Below are positions 1 to 55,186 of a stretch of 55,186 nt of DNA, piece by piece. Origin of the DNA: a virus (lineage: Duplodnaviria; Caudoviricetes). Position 1 is the stretch's first letter; every line of letters begins with the position of its first letter. The notes beneath the pieces are model-generated. The model was not told where the DNA came from. It saw nothing but the letters and a program-made list of their open reading frames with translations, and made no database searches. The translations under genes were made by a program, and so were the position numbers. Location: positions 1 through 55,186 of the IMG/VR virus record IMGVR_UViG_3300030104_000268. The stretch is one strand, 5' to 3'.

Positions 1-77
1 CTACTTGTGCTAGTTCAGGCATATTATTTTCTCCTTATGTTGGGGCCAGCTATTACACTGGGTAGCCTTATTATTTT
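1..77. repeat. Exact 77-bp repeat of 54816-54892 (contig-end overlap)
   Basis: Base-by-base identity, with divergence at 78/54893. Confidence 0.95.
42..67 (-). promoter_or_regulatory. Scaffold-gene leader hairpin (duplicate of 54857-54882)
   Basis: GG-CUAC-CCAG-loop-CUGG-CC-CC just upstream of the AAGGAG RBS. Confidence 0.5.
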
Positions 78-14646: not shown

Positions 14647-14862
14647 TTACTTAGCACCTCGGTCAGTCTTTGCTTCCTTGTTCATCCAGATGCCAAAACA
14701 TCCTGTCAAGGCTCCCATACACACTGATACTAGTCCAGCCTGTCCATTAGTAGGATCAGGTAGAGACATATACCAGTGGACAGACTGATATGTTAGTACT
14801 GTTACCACCAACATCATTAGTCTTGGAAAGATCTTATAGTCATCTATGATTGTACTAGCCAT
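14647..14862 (-). CDS. Two-TM membrane protein (holin-like)
   Basis: FPRLMM...W...P.P...QAGLVS pattern. Confidence 0.55.
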   Translation of the reverse strand: MASTIIDDYKIFPRLMMLVVTVLTYQSVHWYMSLPDPTNGQAGLVSVCMGALTGCFGIWMNKEAKTDRGAK

Positions 14863-15106
14863 ATTCTCTTTTCCTCTTGGGATCTAGAACGTCTTTAGCT
14901 TCCAACATACCTTCAAGATACATTGCACGTTCCACTCTGTCTAAAGAATATCTGACTCCTGTATCCTGGTGTATCTTTTCTCTAACATAAAATACATCTG
15001 ATCTAGGGATGTGTACTCTTTTTAGTCTTCCTTCGTCTTCACTTACCAGTGCTTCATAAAATTCTTCTATAACTTTGTCTGAAGAATACATTTTTGGTTT
15101 AGACAT
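14855..15106 (-). CDS. Hypothetical protein, first gene of the leftward arm
   Basis: 83-aa ORF immediately after a consensus promoter; no SD. Confidence 0.65.
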   Translation of the reverse strand: MSKPKMYSSDKVIEEFYEALVSEDEGRLKRVHIPRSDVFYVREKIHQDTGVRYSLDRVERAMYLEGMLEAKDVLDPKRKREYG

Positions 15107-15111
15107 GCCTA

Positions 15112-15140
15112 GTTATACCTCATATCATTCTGAATGTCAA
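15112..15140 (-). promoter_or_regulatory. Sigma70-type promoter, probably giving a leaderless mRNA
   Basis: TTGACA-N17-TATAAC ending 5 nt before ATG 15106. Confidence 0.7.
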
Positions 15141-19388: not shown

Positions 19389-19874
19389 ATGCCAAAACCA
19401 GCCCTAAGTATTTCTTGGCTTTATGTGGATGGCAAGGATGAACTGATGCAAACTTGCCCGTGTTGTCACGCAGAAGTGAGCACATTGCACAGACATCACA
19501 TACTACCCAAAGTATTGGGTGGTGTGGATGATGAGAGTAACATAGTAAACTGTTGTGAGGAGTGTCATGGTAAGATACATGGTAGAGACATGCTACATCA
19601 CAGTGCTCTAACACGTGAAGGATTACGTAAGGCTAAAGCACGTGGTGTGTTGTTAGGTGGTGCAAGACCTAACAGCCAAGCACGGCACGATGCAGTTAAG
19701 GCATTGGCAGATGCAAAAGCAAAGGAGGTCAAACCAACAATTGAACAATTTAGAAACGATGGTTTAACTTATAGTGAGATTGCAGACAAATTAAACGAGG
19801 CAAATGTGCCTACTGCACGGGGAGGCAAATGGTATGACGGCACTGTGCAGAGATATAACAAGAGAGAAGTGTAA
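19389..19874 (+). CDS. HNH endonuclease fused to a serine-recombinase C-terminal-like DNA-binding domain
   Basis: CPCC..HRHHILP..LGG.D..SN...C..CH..IH, then TREGL..AKARG..LG and EIADKLN....TARGGKW. Confidence 0.7.
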   Translation: MPKPALSISWLYVDGKDELMQTCPCCHAEVSTLHRHHILPKVLGGVDDESNIVNCCEECHGKIHGRDMLHHSALTREGLRKAKARGVLLGGARPNSQARHDAVKALADAKAKEVKPTIEQFRNDGLTYSEIADKLNEANVPTARGGKWYDGTVQRYNKREV

Positions 19875-20216: not shown

Positions 20217-21104
20217 ATGAGGTTTAGTAAGTCTGTATGTAAGTATTTAGATAGTAGAACTTATAACTCTTTAAGTTATAGTACAAAAAAGACTTACAAA
20301 TATAATCTAAACCGTATCAGTAATACTAAAGTATATGGTACACCTATGGCTACAAAGATGCTAAAAAGGATAGACTTTGATATATGCAATGAGTTGTACG
20401 ACACTTGGGAGTTTGAGGATAGCACTTCAAATGCTAATCACTTGGCTAGGGTATTCTCTGTACTAATGAACTACTATGTTGATAGGGAAGTAATACTAAG
20501 AAATCCAATGAGGAGAGTTAAAAAGAGGACTAGTGAACCAAGGTCAGTCATATGGAAACATGAACAGGTTATGTTGTTTCTGGATGTGGCCTTCACAAAC
20601 TTTGACTGGAGAAACATTGGACTAATAGTGCTGATGTGTTATGAGTGGAGCCAAAGACCAGTGGACATACGCAACTTAACATTTAATAACATTAACTGGA
20701 AGGATAGATTTGTAACTATAAAACAGACTAAACGTGGTGCCACAGTAGAACTACCCATAACAGATGAACTCTACCCTATGCTTGAACAGCAGTTTCAGGA
20801 CTGGGGGTTTCAGGACTATGTAGTACCACACCACAGGGCTTCTGATGGGGCTTACAGGCCGCTAACAGTTTTACAGATGACCACCCTACTGAAAGAAGTT
20901 AAGGCTACTGCTGGACTTCCTGATGACCTACAGGTGGGTGATCTACGTAAGACTGGTATAGTCCAGATGATTGAGGGGCAGGTGGATCACTTGGCTATTC
21001 AGTCTGTAACAGGACACAAGAATGTTAGTAGTCTTAACCCGTACAATAAGTTTAACTTGGAAACAGCAAAATCTGCATTAGATAGGAGAGTTAAATGCCA
21101 CTAG
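20217..21104 (+). CDS. int: Tyrosine recombinase / integrase
   Basis: QRPVD (Arg I), QTKRG (Lys), DLRKT (Arg II), TGH, catalytic Tyr in LNPY. Confidence 0.85.
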   Translation: MRFSKSVCKYLDSRTYNSLSYSTKKTYKYNLNRISNTKVYGTPMATKMLKRIDFDICNELYDTWEFEDSTSNANHLARVFSVLMNYYVDREVILRNPMRRVKKRTSEPRSVIWKHEQVMLFLDVAFTNFDWRNIGLIVLMCYEWSQRPVDIRNLTFNNINWKDRFVTIKQTKRGATVELPITDELYPMLEQQFQDWGFQDYVVPHHRASDGAYRPLTVLQMTTLLKEVKATAGLPDDLQVGDLRKTGIVQMIEGQVDHLAIQSVTGHKNVSSLNPYNKFNLETAKSALDRRVKCH

Positions 21105-52090: not shown

Positions 52091-52627
52091 TTATGCTAGT
52101 AGATCACGATCCACTTCTTGAGCAGAACTAGACTGTGAGACATCATCCATCATTACGCATACTGCGTAAACACGAATAGTGCCACCAGTGATGGTTCCAC
52201 TTGATGCATGTATTTCTACATCAATAGTATCTGCTGATGCAGTAAATGCTGGTAGATTAGAACATACACCTGAAGATGTAACTGCAGGAGTGTGATCTCC
52301 TACAGATGCAGCATCTAGGTCAAATGATGCAGCAAAGATATCTACATCTGTTCCAGTAATACCAATATGCAAAGCAGAGTCACTTGTAGTGCCTGTCATT
52401 GCAGCAGTAACTTCAAAACCTGAGTGCAGGATTAAAGTGTTTGCAGGAACAGCAATAGCTTCAATGATATCATTAGCTGCTAGTGCAGTTCCACCGTTTT
52501 GTAAGATAGCATCTGCAAGATCAATATCATTCTGCAGAGTTACCAAACTTCCACGAATCTGCTTGTTGCCTGTACCGCCATTGTTGGAAGTAGAGGCTGA
52601 GTTTGTGCTCATTGAGATAGTAGCCAT
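52091..52627 (-). CDS. Capsid decoration/minor capsid protein
   Basis: Beta-rich 178 aa directly after MCP; GGAGG RBS. Confidence 0.55.
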   Translation of the reverse strand: MATISMSTNSASTSNNGGTGNKQIRGSLVTLQNDIDLADAILQNGGTALAANDIIEAIAVPANTLILHSGFEVTAAMTGTTSDSALHIGITGTDVDIFAASFDLDAASVGDHTPAVTSSGVCSNLPAFTASADTIDVEIHASSGTITGGTIRVYAVCVMMDDVSQSSSAQEVDRDLLA

Positions 52628-52641
52628 AATTCAATCCTCCC

Positions 52642-53715
52642 TTACGCTGAGTTATATTTAGCAGTACAGATAGCTTCAGGACGAAGTATCTTCCTACCGT
52701 ATAGATGCATACCACGAACAATGTCAGCAAAGCTGTCAGGGTCACGATATGTTTCTGTCTTATTGATCTGCTCTGCAGTTGCAACAGCAGAATCATGTCC
52801 AGCAACAATTACACCAAAAGCTGTATTTTGGTTTGCAGTGCCTGATGTACCTGGTCCAGTACCTACTGCTGGTAGGTTAGAGGATACATATAGACGGAAG
52901 CCGTGAAAGTTATTAATCACGAGTCCGTTACGTAGGCCACCTGACTCACCGTAATCTCCATTCATGAAGCGACTGTCCTCATCGGAAAGTATCTCCATAA
53001 ATACAGGGTCGATTACCAGCCAACGCCCTTGGGTGTCAACTTGTTGTTGATCAAGCAAACGCTTCATACGTGCAATAATCATTGCAGGTGAAACAGTTGC
53101 AGTTGGAAGTGAAGTAGCACCTGGCATACGAGCAGTTACTGGGATTGAGTGATCACCAGCAGATGTCGTAGTAATATTACCAAATGAACTTTTAATCAGT
53201 TTCATGCTTGAAAGCAATTCGTCTGAACCTGCAGAGAGAACAGCTTTTTCACCACTTGCAGTAGTGTTAGCTGTATCTGCTTTTGCATGTAGAGCCGATT
53301 GTTTGAAGCCTGATAAATAACCTAGAACCTCTTGGTCATACTGATCAGCTAGACGGTAAGCTGCACGATCTGTTGCCAGATCCATGAAGTTTACGTGACT
53401 GTGTGCTTCCTCAATGTCATCCATTTTGAAAGCAAAGTAGTTTGATTTGTCAACTACTAGTGTGAAATCTTCATCGTCTAGGTCTTGTGCTGTGACAGTT
53501 GTGCCACGAGTATAAGCCTGGACTGAGATTTCAGGTTCTTTAATGATACGTACTGTATCACCTTGGGCAGCAATCTCTCCGAAATAGTCAGAGTTTGTAA
53601 TGTCACCCACGGTAGCAGCTTTACGGAACGCAAGCTGTACCTTTTTGGAATAGATTATGGGACTAAAATTACCATTAGGTAAATTCCCATAACCTGACGC
53701 ACTTGAAAAAGCCAT
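52642..53715 (-). CDS. Major capsid protein
   Basis: FSPIIYSKK, DYFGEI..QGDTV.I, GMHLYGRKILRPE; AGGAGG RBS before ATG 53715. Confidence 0.9.
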   Translation of the reverse strand: MAFSSASGYGNLPNGNFSPIIYSKKVQLAFRKAATVGDITNSDYFGEIAAQGDTVRIIKEPEISVQAYTRGTTVTAQDLDDEDFTLVVDKSNYFAFKMDDIEEAHSHVNFMDLATDRAAYRLADQYDQEVLGYLSGFKQSALHAKADTANTTASGEKAVLSAGSDELLSSMKLIKSSFGNITTTSAGDHSIPVTARMPGATSLPTATVSPAMIIARMKRLLDQQQVDTQGRWLVIDPVFMEILSDEDSRFMNGDYGESGGLRNGLVINNFHGFRLYVSSNLPAVGTGPGTSGTANQNTAFGVIVAGHDSAVATAEQINKTETYRDPDSFADIVRGMHLYGRKILRPEAICTAKYNSA

Positions 53716-53759
53716 GGTATCATCCTCCTGTAGTTTGGCTTTAGAAGCTAAACACATTG

Positions 53760-53895
53760 AAGAGGCTGTTATTTTTCTAGGGTGCAAGCATACTGATCAG
53801 GTTAGCTTGGGCCTATACTTGAACAGGTAGTTCTTATTAGTTTAGACTTTATTGAAATGAACATAAACAAAAGGTAGTCAAAAGAGGCTTTTGTT
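53760..53895 (-). ncRNA. Structured 5' leader of the MCP mRNA with three copies of a G-CC/C(U)AC-C internal loop
   Basis: Hairpin 53866-53895 and nested stems 53760-53835 and 53778-53815, paired by hand. Confidence 0.55.
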
Positions 53896-53906
53896 ATATA
53901 TCCCTA

Positions 53907-53934
53907 GTTATACTATTAACTTTCTATTTGTCAA
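53907..53934 (-). promoter_or_regulatory. Promoter for the MCP operon
   Basis: TTGACA-N16-TATAAC; shares GTATAACTAGG with the 15112 promoter. Confidence 0.65.
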
Positions 53935-53937
53935 TAG

Positions 53938-54837
53938 TTATCTTGCAGATCCTGATATATCATACACAAATTTTCCACTACGTAGTGCAGCATTTATGTT
54001 ATCAGAATTTTCTGCAAATTCTCTGTCAGACATTTTAGCAACGTCTGATTCTTTAATCATGTTGTTAGCATCAGCAAGATCTACTTCTGTCTTACTTTTT
54101 CTGGCTACAGTCTTAGCAGCGTTCTTAGTATTTTTCTTTCTGTCAGAAACAGTAAGACCATTATCCATTTTATATAAATCAATAACTCTAATTACTGAGT
54201 CAGGGTCATCTGAGTTTTCATAGAGAGCATCCTTAACCCACTTAGGTTGTTCTTCTGCCCAGTTGTGAAACTCATCTGCTGCTCTAAGATCATCAAAGTC
54301 AGAGTGAGCTTTACGTATTAAGTTTTCTGCACTGTCACGCTTTAGCTCCATACGTTCCTCATCAATCTCTTTAATACGTATGTTAGCCTTTTCAAACATT
54401 TCTTGTGCTTGTTTAGCTGCAATTTTTTCTACTATGCCAGCTACATCAGGATACTGCTTTGCCCACTCTTCTATATCCTCATCAGACTTAGGTGGGGTTA
54501 TTCCTTCTTGAGTAGCTACTTTTTCTAAGCGGCTAAACTTTTCTTCCCACTCTTTTTCTTTTTCTTGGACATGTCTCCGTAGATCACCATATCTTTTTTT
54601 AAAAGTTCTTTCTTCTGCAGATAGCGTTTTTTCTTCAACTTCTGTATTGGCCTCTTCCTCTTGGGAAGTTTCTTCTTTTGGCTCTGCATCTACTGGGTTT
54701 TCCCCTCTTGCTTCAGCTTCAAGTTTTTTAATCTCCTCTTCTTCAGCTTCCATTTTCTTTTGTTTCTTTTCGTAGTTGTAACCACGGTCAACAAATCCTG
54801 CAGTCTTCTTTGTTTCTACTTGTGCTAGTTCAGGCAT
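53938..54837 (-). CDS. Capsid scaffolding protein
   Basis: Acidic coiled coil, FKKRYGDLRRH, HSDF, upstream of MCP. Confidence 0.75.
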   Translation of the reverse strand: MPELAQVETKKTAGFVDRGYNYEKKQKKMEAEEEEIKKLEAEARGENPVDAEPKEETSQEEEANTEVEEKTLSAEERTFKKRYGDLRRHVQEKEKEWEEKFSRLEKVATQEGITPPKSDEDIEEWAKQYPDVAGIVEKIAAKQAQEMFEKANIRIKEIDEERMELKRDSAENLIRKAHSDFDDLRAADEFHNWAEEQPKWVKDALYENSDDPDSVIRVIDLYKMDNGLTVSDRKKNTKNAAKTVARKSKTEVDLADANNMIKESDVAKMSDREFAENSDNINAALRSGKFVYDISGSAR

Positions 54838-54856
54838 ATTATTTTCTCCTTATGTT

Positions 54857-54882
54857 GGGGCCAGCTATTACACTGGGTAGCC
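54857..54882 (-). promoter_or_regulatory. Scaffold-gene leader hairpin with the G-CC/CUAC-C internal loop
   Basis: GG-CUAC-CCAG-UGUAAUAG-CUGG-CC-CC, 5 nt upstream of AAGGAG. Confidence 0.55.
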
Positions 54883-54885
54883 TTA

Positions 54886-55186
54886 TTATTTTTTGTTTAC
54901 CTTTTTTCTTTGCATTAAACCACCTTTGTTAAATCCACCACCTCTTTTTATTTTTTGTTCTATACTTTCTGTTCTACCTGCAGCTTGTTGTTCTTTTTCG
55001 GCTTTTGCTGCTGCAGTATATGCTTCTTTATATTGCTTTTCTTTTTTTTCTCTTTGCATTTTCTGTGCTGCTGATTCACCACCACTTTTATCAGTACTAC
55101 TACCACCTTGTTGTTGTGGTTCTGGAGTAGTAGTAGTGGCTTTAGTAGCTGTGGCATCACTATTCATCCAAGCATTTAATTCTTTT
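54886..55186 (-). CDS. Partial CDS: alternative C-terminal allele of the 1246-aa protein
   Basis: Shares KELNAWMNSDATATKATTT and NKGGLMQRK with 71-364 but differs in between; runs off the window end. Confidence 0.75.
   Translation of the reverse strand, partial: KELNAWMNSDATATKATTTTPEPQQQGGSSTDKSGGESAAQKMQREKKEKQYKEAYTAAAKAEKEQQAAGRTESIEQKIKRGGGFNKGGLMQRKKVNKK

Follow-up and report, generated by a model that had tools for sequence, protein, structure and literature searches.

The window considered here, the whole 55,186-nucleotide (nt) stretch of the viral record IMGVR_UViG_3300030104_000268 (Duplodnaviria; Caudoviricetes), is a podophage genome of the HMO-2011 type, as judged by comparison of its capsid protein with those of cultured relatives, the nearest of which (Roseobacter phages CRP-9, CRP-13 and CRP-1 and Puniceispirillum phage HMO-2011) are 72-80% identical to it in that protein. 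Near its right-hand end the (-) strand carries, in order of reading, the end of a 1246-amino-acid (aa) gene, a 299-aa gene that we call scaffold-like, the major capsid gene, and then adaptor and tail genes. As comparison of relatives shows, the messenger RNAs (mRNAs) of the scaffold-like and capsid genes carry conserved 5′ leaders with predicted folds that share one asymmetric internal loop, found once in the scaffold leader (element A) and three times in the capsid leader (elements B, C and D). These leaders are most likely a cis-acting translational control element common to two head genes. The features of the locus, in the order in which the (-) strand is read and with a duplicate of element A placed last, are as follows.

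54857..54882, (-) strand: hairpin A of the scaffold leader, GG-[CUAC]-CCAG-loop-CUGG-[CC]-CC, which recurs before scaffold genes.
53938..54837, (-) strand: scaffold-like gene of 299 aa, served by leader A; it matches phrog_13678, a family of unknown function.
53907..53934, (-) strand: conserved sigma-70-type promoter of the capsid transcript, with TTGACA at 53934-53929, a 16-nt spacer and TATAAC at 53912-53907.
53866..53895, (-) strand: P1 (element B), the 5′-proximal hairpin of the capsid leader, AACAAAAG-CC-UC/GA-CUAC-CUUUUGUU.
53840..53845 with 53748-53753, (-) strand: P2, a tentative long-range helix, CUAAAC / GUUUAG, enclosing the rod.
53760..53835, (-) strand: the rod, in which C (AAGA-ACUAC-CUGUU/AACAG-CC-UCUU) encloses D; supported by covariation.
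53816..53820, (-) strand: AAGUA, an internal loop between C and D, opposite GAAAA at 53773-53777; its letters are kept in 55-72 of 75 leaders.
53778..53815, (-) strand: D (UAGG-CC-CAAGC/GCUUG-CAC-CCUA), with a covarying inner stem and a variable apex.
53738..53748, (-) strand: P4, a tentative small hairpin (GCUU-CUA-AAGC) that separates the rod from the ribosome-binding site (RBS), from the model-fitted alignment.
53713..53729, (-) strand: capsid RBS AGGAGGA (53729-53723) and start codon (53715-53713), conserved in the alignment.
53715-52642, (-) strand: major capsid gene, matching phrog_267 (major head protein, E = 1.9e-63).
42..67, (-) strand: duplicate of hairpin A arising from an overlap of the window's ends and not independent of it (62.1 bits at 22-84 with the covariance model R1).

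A first-pass annotation, made from the sequence alone, had read A to D on the mRNA strand as four copies of one loop, held in constant form and in both orientations between stems that differ in sequence while keeping their pairing, and its coordinates and readings of all four on the (-) strand stand exactly as given. A loose scan of the window for the loop returned 21 instances on the mRNA strand and 42 on the + strand, and 100 block shuffles of the mRNA strand gave 15.1 +/- 3.8 with a maximum of 26. The folding energy of the gap between the two genes lies at z = -2.13 relative to shuffles, 5 of 200 of which were as good, and the fold of minimum energy includes B together with the inner stem of D, with C missing. 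It is alignment with relatives that settles what the single sequence cannot and confirms the four-loop observation as real: the covariation and the loop conservation for which the annotation had proposed looking are both present there, in B, in the rod and in the variable pairs of A.

A scan of IMG/VR with the capsid protein matched at least 600 stretches, the best 80 loci of which (capsid identity 81-96%) were used together with 18 phage regions from GenBank. The window and 83 loci were examined, and the 78 that held both the end of the scaffold gene and the start of the capsid gene reduced to 67 distinct gaps of 215-328 nt. For the rod, 64 of these 67 sequences were aligned with MAFFT, three with long insertions near the start codon (L064, L076 and L082) being left out, and 75 distinct leaders were aligned to a covariance model, an alignment that leans towards the model. 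Pairing was judged against controls in which the 3′ partner was slid along the alignment, and against shuffles.

P1 is an outer stem and a short inner stem around the loop CC / CUAC, with conserved A-U and G-C closure. Applied to the 67 sequences, RNAalifold returned a stem, an internal loop and a stem that together are P1, with 7 of 9 pairs changing on both sides; in the 11-pair structure, nine pairs have compensatory changes. Pairing is kept in 89.4% of cells as against 34-51% when slid, a level reached by none of 500 shuffles, and the covariation score is 0.654 as against at most 0.163 in the slid controls. The loop itself, AGCC / C(U/C)ACCU, is invariant while the stems on either side change freely. 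The covariance model of P1 (R2) scores 45.8 bits at B and has no second copy in the window. On the 5′ side of P1, at 53896-53906 (-), the stem of many relatives is seen by eye to run on towards the predicted 5′ end of the transcript, as GGG...CCC or GUAUCU...AGAUAC for instance, and a P1 so extended would bury the 5′ end of the mRNA in a long hairpin.

Read from the outside inwards, the rod consists of AAGA/UCUU, ACUAC/CC, CUG../..CAG, AAGUA/GAAAA, UAGG/CCUA, CC/CAC and a variable inner stem with its apex, the inner stem of C being CUGUU(C)/(U)AACAG. On the MAFFT alignment 85.0% of its cells are paired (32-47% when slid) with a covariation score of 0.247 (at most 0.078 when slid), and the inner stems of C and D hold four compensatory pairs each. 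On the model-fitted alignment the figures are 87.2% as against 27-50%, with double changes at 25 of 28 pairs, including all five of the inner stem of D; over the two alignments the inner stem of C has four to five pairs with compensatory changes. The outer stems, AAGA/UCUU of C and UAGG/CCUA of D, are near-invariant, save that U has become C opposite A in the outer stem of D in 16-19 leaders. Over the 75 leaders the short strand CC is present in every case in both rod loops; in the long strand of C the A and the 3′ C are likewise universal, the U is found in 68, and the 5′ C is spread over two columns (57 and 25), while the C-A-C of the long strand of D is kept in 67, 70 and 70. The internal loop AAGUA/GAAAA resembles what we take to be the AGUA/GAA consensus of the bulged-G (sarcin-ricin or loop E) motif, and is replaced in HMO-2011 by an ordinary helix. 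A covariance model of the rod with its two flanking helices has a single match, always on the coding strand, in the window and in each of 89 of 98 loci, including CRP-2, CRP-603, CRP-207, CRP-3, HMO-2011 and MW202701 outside its seed.

The two flanking helices are tentative. P2 is 79.6% paired on the MAFFT alignment (at most 50% when slid) with few compensatory changes, and 85.8% paired on the model-fitted alignment with double changes at 4 of 5 pairs; P4 is unsupported on the former and, on the latter, model-leaning alignment, 88% paired with double changes at 4 of 4 pairs. At the apex of D (53789-53803, (-) strand) the window carries the palindrome CUGAUCAG, common to L001, L002 and L008, which could permit loop-loop dimerisation; most relatives have a longer hairpin there, with loops such as GGUUGGCCGACU. 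A leader peptide was considered and rejected, the frame upstream of the capsid start being open in the window while relatives differ there by insertions and deletions.

In the scaffold leader, hairpin A ends 5 nt before the RBS AAGGAG (54851-54846), itself followed by the gene start at 54837. Forty-eight distinct upstream regions carry AUAAGGCUAC(C/U)CAG-loop-CUG(G/A)CCCCAACAUA ahead of an RBS, L060 being the exception, and RNAalifold recovers the GG/CC closure, the CUAC/CC loop and the CCAG/CUGG stem. The distance from hairpin to RBS has a median of 6 nt (range 5-8 nt), the RBS is predicted to be open (mean unpaired probability 0.63), the apical loops are often UACG or UUCG, and the genes behind the hairpin have many different N-termini. 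A pattern scan of IMG/VR for hairpin A, in which mismatched C.A and A.C were permitted at two pairs, matched at least 119 loci; among the matches listed, to which the following counts refer, there are 62 distinct hairpins with full flanks, 45 of them (96 loci) with the UAA flank and an RBS. In these 45, pair 1 is CG in 38, UA in six, UG in one and CA in none, pair 3 is AU in 35, GU in nine, GC in one and AC in none, and a fifth pair left free by the pattern can form in all. The resulting excess of G.U/U.G over A.C/C.A, 11 to 0, points to an RNA of this strand. The 17 other matches, mostly GC-rich and with CA in three and AC in two, are read as chance, as are at least 120 matches in bacterial genomes, which come mainly from GC-rich unrelated lineages and were not inspected singly; some 3,000 were expected in the 596 Gb scanned.

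Searched over the whole 55-kb window without filtering, the models of hairpin A (R1, 65.7 bits) and P1 return only A, with its end-overlap duplicate, and B, the next match having E >= 0.6. Across the 98 loci, the models match once per relative and never off the coding strand; the match precedes the scaffold gene in 52 loci and the capsid gene in 81 (P1) and 89 (rod), and in every relative the elements lie between the promoter or the upstream gene and the RBS. Among wider relatives, the scaffold leader holds two nested loops of opposite orientation in 11 distinct cases, the parse having been selected for pairing; the carriers are HMO-2011, CRP-212, CRP-3, CRP-345, MW202701, two rhizobial phages and several IMG/VR phages. 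The layout, GG-[CUAC]-stem-[CC]-stem-loop-stem-[CUAC]-stem-[CC]-CC, stands directly before the RBS with a middle stem that differs between cases, and the capsid rod repeats this topology around a longer middle part. The loop is invariant in phages of Roseobacter, SAR116 and Rhizobium hosts, and takes a variant form in Pelagibacter phages. Three IMG/VR phages (L151, L155 and L176) have instead a GGCUACCC...GGCCCC hairpin followed about 13 nt on by a second GGCUACCC just before the start codon, an arrangement that is tandem rather than nested.

The capsid leader begins at a promoter of its own, as the first-pass annotation had held. TTGACA-N16-TATAAC is present in all 67 distinct gaps, starting 6-21 nt past the scaffold stop codon, and places the predicted start near 53900, about 7 nt past the -10 box, which gives a leader of 185 nt in the window and of about 185-210 nt across relatives. 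A generic promoter scan missed the site because it requires T at the last -10 position. Matches of the form TTGACA...TATAAC number two in the window, as against 0.10 expected, and the only other one with a spacer of 15-19 nt (15112-15140, (-) strand) lies directly upstream of the first gene of a leftward operon (14855-15106). No terminator-like site was found on the coding strand between leader and capsid gene, nor close behind the capsid gene, and no conserved promoter was seen for the scaffold leader, hairpin A lying inside a polycistronic region. A host-type promoter, possibly firing early, would make post-transcriptional control useful. In the region 1202-2001 of one relative, L084 (MW202701), an HNH endonuclease gene separates the conserved promoter from the capsid gene, and all that can be recognised of the leader ahead of the capsid start is its 3′ part (GCACC...AGCCUCU), as if a homing endonuclease had inserted there.

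The constant core of the loop is 5′-C(N)AC-C / 5′-G-CC. The G-C pair 3′ of its long strand is kept in 61 of 62 P1 sequences and in all 75 of both C and D, and in A is CG in 38, UA in six and UG in one of the 45 hairpins among the matches listed. This recalls the C-loop, which Lescoute et al. in 2005 reportedly located in helices 38, 50 and 96 of 23S ribosomal RNA (rRNA) and in helix 15 of 16S rRNA. According to the accessible text of PMC2952876, a C-loop combines two multi-paired cytosines with an accessible unpaired adenine, has a variant with one inserted nucleotide and serves as an RNA-protein binding site, wording that agrees with the first-pass statement that motifs of this type bind proteins; an instance with an insertion on each strand appears in the available portion of PMC3273805, and the part of PMC2441787 at hand treats C-loops as structural twist elements. 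Like a C-loop, the phage loop sits asymmetrically between Watson-Crick helices (both stems covary in B, the inner ones in C and D), and its long strand reads CAC in D, whereas A, B and C have C-U-A-C, one nucleotide being inserted as in the published variant. Its short strand differs, being always CC (2 nt) as against, by our reading, a single nucleotide in the H50 construct described in that portion of PMC2441787. The phage loop fits the C-loop wording and is a candidate for this motif, which is defined by base triples of its cytosines with the adjoining pairs and has an increased helical twist.

The element is apparently an undescribed regulatory RNA, as the first-pass annotation had suspected in proposing a new cis-regulatory family. 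With Rfam 15, the region 52500-55186 searched at E <= 10 gave only mir-2797, on the + strand and at 19.1 bits as against a gathering score of 74 (E = 5), and the window with 12 relatives' loci (122,445 bases) gave no match at gathering scores. Our searches of the literature on the HMO-2011 capsid and structured RNA, and on covariation in capsid leaders, found no published description; a term search of the main text of the HMO-2011 group paper returned no mention of promoters or intergenic elements, and the consulted part of PMC10690425 reports five candidate structured RNAs, left without names, ahead of genes of one major capsid protein family. As far as we have found, repeated use of a C-loop-like motif in a phage mRNA leader has no earlier description.

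How such leaders might act is suggested by the capsid RBS, which is complementary to CCUCUU (53760-53765), a strand of the rod lying 3′ in loop C. In the free predicted ensemble of 67 leaders the RBS has a mean unpaired probability of 0.23 (above 0.5 in nine) and pairs with the AGCCUCUU strand with a mean probability of 0.61; forcing the rod, at a median cost of 6.2 kcal/mol, raises the unpaired probability to 0.53 (above 0.5 in 37 of 64). As CCUCUU is needed for both, the model predicts that the rod and the masking of the RBS are mutually exclusive, and a second constraint of this kind on UCUU would explain why AAGA/UCUU, unlike other stems, is near-invariant. The reading that we prefer, to which we give a probability of about 0.5, is that a single trans-acting factor, most likely a protein (scaffold, capsid, another phage protein or a host component), recognises the loops as modules and would thereby couple translation of the two head proteins in greatest demand. 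Bound to the scaffold leader beside the RBS, the factor would hinder initiation; in the capsid leader, by stabilising the rod, it would release CCUCUU, free the RBS and so activate translation. Loop letters that are invariant while the stems around them change behave as a recognition site does. The first-pass interpretation is supported in part, namely for the constant loop, the changing stems, the capsid promoter and the RNA family; its proposal that scaffold or capsid protein binds the loops to balance the two syntheses is conjectural.

A good deal weighs against this reading. Within one sequence the loop pattern is not beyond chance. Covariation is no test of AAGA/UCUU, UAGG/CCUA or the GG/CC closure of A, all of which hardly vary, and RNAalifold on the MAFFT alignment of the rod does not recover the rod, returning only three invariant pairs, GGC with GCC. 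Neither the rod (39 G.U to 32 A.C) nor P1 (15 to 15) shows the strand asymmetry of hairpin A. The outer GG/CC of A never varies and has a probability of 0.09 in the energy model, so that the internal-loop reading of A rests on analogy with B, C and D, and RNAfold, applied to 12 wider relatives, replaces the loops in four of them by a pairing of GGCUAC with GUGGCC. The rod lies about 6 kcal/mol above the predicted ensemble, a figure that cuts both ways because the energy model leaves non-canonical motifs unscored. Both partners in the masking of the RBS are fixed, and covariation therefore cannot probe it; the masking probability is 0 in L043, L044, L046 and L063 (one subgroup, in which L073 was unscored) and in L009, L031 and L083, and 0.02 in L028. 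Nor do all relatives share the parts: among close relatives, L060 carries a plain hairpin of another kind ahead of the scaffold gene, CRP-2, CRP-603 and CRP-207 have a plain P1 hairpin with neither loop nor R2 match, and pelagiphages HTVC115P and HTVC033P and Vibrio phage CHOED, which carry variant loops before the scaffold gene, are without a long capsid leader (gaps of 58, 31 and 26 nt). Concerning the factor, no RNA-binding domain was recognised among the 62 open reading frames (ORFs) of the window, a fold search of the 299-aa protein model against the PDB gave nothing at E <= 0.001 (the model being simply helical), and a loop that stays invariant while the scaffold protein drifts (47-85% identity within the set of close relatives) favours an intrinsic fold or a conserved host partner over the scaffold as a co-evolving binder.

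Several of these points would be met by a self-contained leader with no dedicated factor, whose C-loop-like and loop-E-like architecture would form a compact 5′ structure and either shield the two late mRNAs in heaviest use from decay that starts at the 5′ end or keep the RBS in a favourable state, for constitutively high expression. P1 lies within a few nt of the presumed transcript start, CRP-2-type relatives exchange it for a plain hairpin, as if the hairpin as such mattered, and A often carries a UACG or UUCG loop; letters that stay fixed across distant phages, hosts and diverged scaffolds are expected of an intrinsic three-dimensional motif, the twist-element role of C-loops cited above suits one, and the 62 ORFs offer no candidate RNA-binding protein. 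We count this explanation a strong rival, though a less likely one than a trans-acting factor. Simple hairpins need no invariant unpaired letters in two leaders and in both orientations, hairpin A, in a polycistronic region without a conserved promoter, could be no 5′-terminal protector unless the RNA is processed, and the predicted competition between rod and RBS suggests regulation rather than a static fold.

The preferred reading of a trans-acting factor has a more specific form, in which the loops would be a dyad-symmetric operator for dimeric free scaffold or capsid protein, repressing scaffold synthesis and activating capsid synthesis by locking the rod, as an assembly-coupled switch. 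The nested loops of opposite orientation are dyad-like and would suit a dimer, and the drift of the scaffold protein beside an invariant loop, noted above, tells against the scaffold as that binder; we regard this version as unlikely. Were it true, the switch would set the scaffold-to-capsid ratio, would span a group among the most abundant of marine phages, together with soil relatives, and would be built from C-loop and loop-E modules of the rRNA type.

A conserved host component might read the loops instead, either the ribosome or a ribosomal protein (the leader being a standby site or enhancer) or a ribonuclease (RNase) whose processing would leave stable 5′ ends. Ribosomal-protein operators mimic rRNA sites, and the RNase III sites of phage T7 are intergenic hairpins with conserved internal loops. 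The motif is invariant across Roseobacter, SAR116 and Rhizobium phages, with a variant in Pelagibacter phages. RNase III, however, needs roughly two helical turns, and the stems here extend 2-8 base pairs (bp) on either side of the loop, short of that requirement; the scan of bacterial genomes gave no identified host copy, its matches falling within the chance estimate, and nothing ties the motif to a particular ribosomal protein. Such loops are known mainly from rRNA (in the accessible parts of PMC2952876 and PMC3273805), so that the leader could mimic an rRNA site, and on balance we think a host reader improbable.

A highly conserved, multi-helix leader of about 190 nt directly downstream of a promoter, preceding a long late operon, might also be a riboswitch-like sensor of a small molecule or a processive antitermination RNA acting on RNA polymerase, like put, which lies shortly past its promoter in phage HK022. 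Some tandem riboswitches carry repeated similar sub-domains, as the capsid leader does, and the predicted masking of the RBS might serve as an expression platform. Yet the same loop occurs alone in the minimal scaffold hairpin, which has no conserved promoter, the coding strand holds no terminator-like site between leader and capsid gene, and no Rfam family matched at E <= 10, all of which makes this explanation very improbable. Conservation at the level of DNA (a regulator site or a packaging or replication signal), with incidental RNA folds, would agree with the dyad-like arrangement and with the equal frequency of G.U and A.C in P1 and the rod, and is hardly credible against stems that covary around fixed, asymmetric unpaired letters (the signature of RNA structure), the 11 to 0 ratio in hairpin A among the matches listed, and the constant position of the elements between promoter or upstream gene and RBS, on the coding strand, in every relative.

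Coupled translation of two head genes would have a precedent of sorts in phage P22, for whose scaffolding protein gene Wyckoff and Casjens reportedly described post-transcriptional autoregulation in 1985, and how the scaffold-to-capsid ratio is set in tailed phages has been an open question since the P22 work. We know of no RNA target defined for P22. The available text of a preprint (bioRxiv 10.1101/2022.12.13.520362) implicates the N-terminus of the P22 scaffolding protein in translational autoregulation. The parallel drawn in the first-pass annotation survives as a concept: in both cases control of head-protein dosage would follow transcription (here as a proposal), and the scaffold gene lies directly upstream of a P22-type coat gene, the coat of the relative HMO-2011 being annotated as Pfam P22 coat. 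It fails as direct homology, which we rejected, since P22 has a portal-scaffold gap of 13 nt, overlapping scaffold and coat genes and no such leader, and no CUAC/CC loop was seen in the P22 sequence upstream of gene 8; here it is the RNA element that is defined, without a protein.

Other phages control translation through operators such as the T4 gene 32 pseudoknot, the RegA sites, the gp43 hairpin and the coat-protein hairpins of RNA phages. Hairpin A, 5-8 nt before its site, resembles these as a small structured element beside a phage RBS, with no likeness in sequence or structure to any of them; it differs in that one module is common to two genes and occurs three times in one leader, the capsid-leader modules lying at least 45 nt upstream of the RBS. 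The T7 gene 10 unit, with its dedicated promoter, translation-enhancing structured leader and terminator, likewise equips a major capsid gene, within the late region, with a strong promoter and a long conserved leader of its own, whereas here the promoter is of the host sigma-70 type, rather than one for a phage polymerase, covarying helices make up a leader about three times as long, and the scan found nothing like a terminator shortly after the capsid gene. The autoregulatory leaders of ribosomal proteins (L1, S15, L20, S8 and others), which mimic rRNA sites, similarly reuse a small internal-loop motif of the rRNA type near a translation start; the present leaders are phage-borne, match none of those Rfam families and have no cognate rRNA site or protein.

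What is gained is a defined RNA of about 190 nt, supported by covariation, and a 26-nt hairpin, both with one invariant loop and with cultured members in CRP-9, CRP-13, CRP-1 and HMO-2011. The reach of such an element may be wide, for HMO-2011-type phages are described, in the part of PMC9038755 available, as dominant and widespread among marine viruses. RNA biology would gain in it a modular mRNA leader assembled from repeated loops of the rRNA type, in both orientations and in nested pairs; were the loops purely architectural, they would still be compact natural building blocks of the C-loop kind outside the ribosome.

The name of the 299-aa gene is itself a matter of prediction. The protein has no Pfam match, its structure model is all-helical with a mean predicted local distance difference test (pLDDT) value of 74, and its matches in BFVD, to entries named capsid assembly or scaffolding protein, are weak (E = 1.3e-3 and 3.9e-3, with low template-modelling (TM) scores); it is on these grounds, and on its position directly upstream of the capsid gene, that we call it scaffold-like. 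A row for Aca2 of phage ZF40 in the PDB fold search, at E = 9, was set aside as meaningless. The first codons of the gene, AUG CCU GAA CUA (54835-54826, (-) strand), keep their nucleotides in most close relatives to a degree above the rest of the protein; a conserved N-terminal peptide may lie behind this, or else the RNA element may reach into the gene.

A search among public RNA runs listed none that contains the sequence, the sampled words are all but absent from the three metatranscriptomes of the same study, and no phage RNA polymerase was found among the 62 ORFs of the window. At its ends the window overlaps itself: positions 1-77 recur unchanged as 54816-54892, hence the duplicate of hairpin A, and the far ends of 1-371 and 54816-55186 are alike again. 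Between them the two copies of this gene end have diverged, with 193 mismatches ungapped, and the low-complexity C-terminal part of the 1246-aa protein is 40% identical from one copy to the other. An exact terminal repeat of 371 nt was therefore rejected, identity being limited to the first 77 nt, and the overlap looks like a circular or permuted assembly that joined two strain variants. Elsewhere the window encodes a DnaB-primase, a family-A DNA polymerase, a ribonucleotide reductase, ThyX and an integrase, and its early rightward region carries an HNH endonuclease with a recombinase-like tail (19389-19874, + strand) and the tyrosine integrase (20217-21104, + strand).

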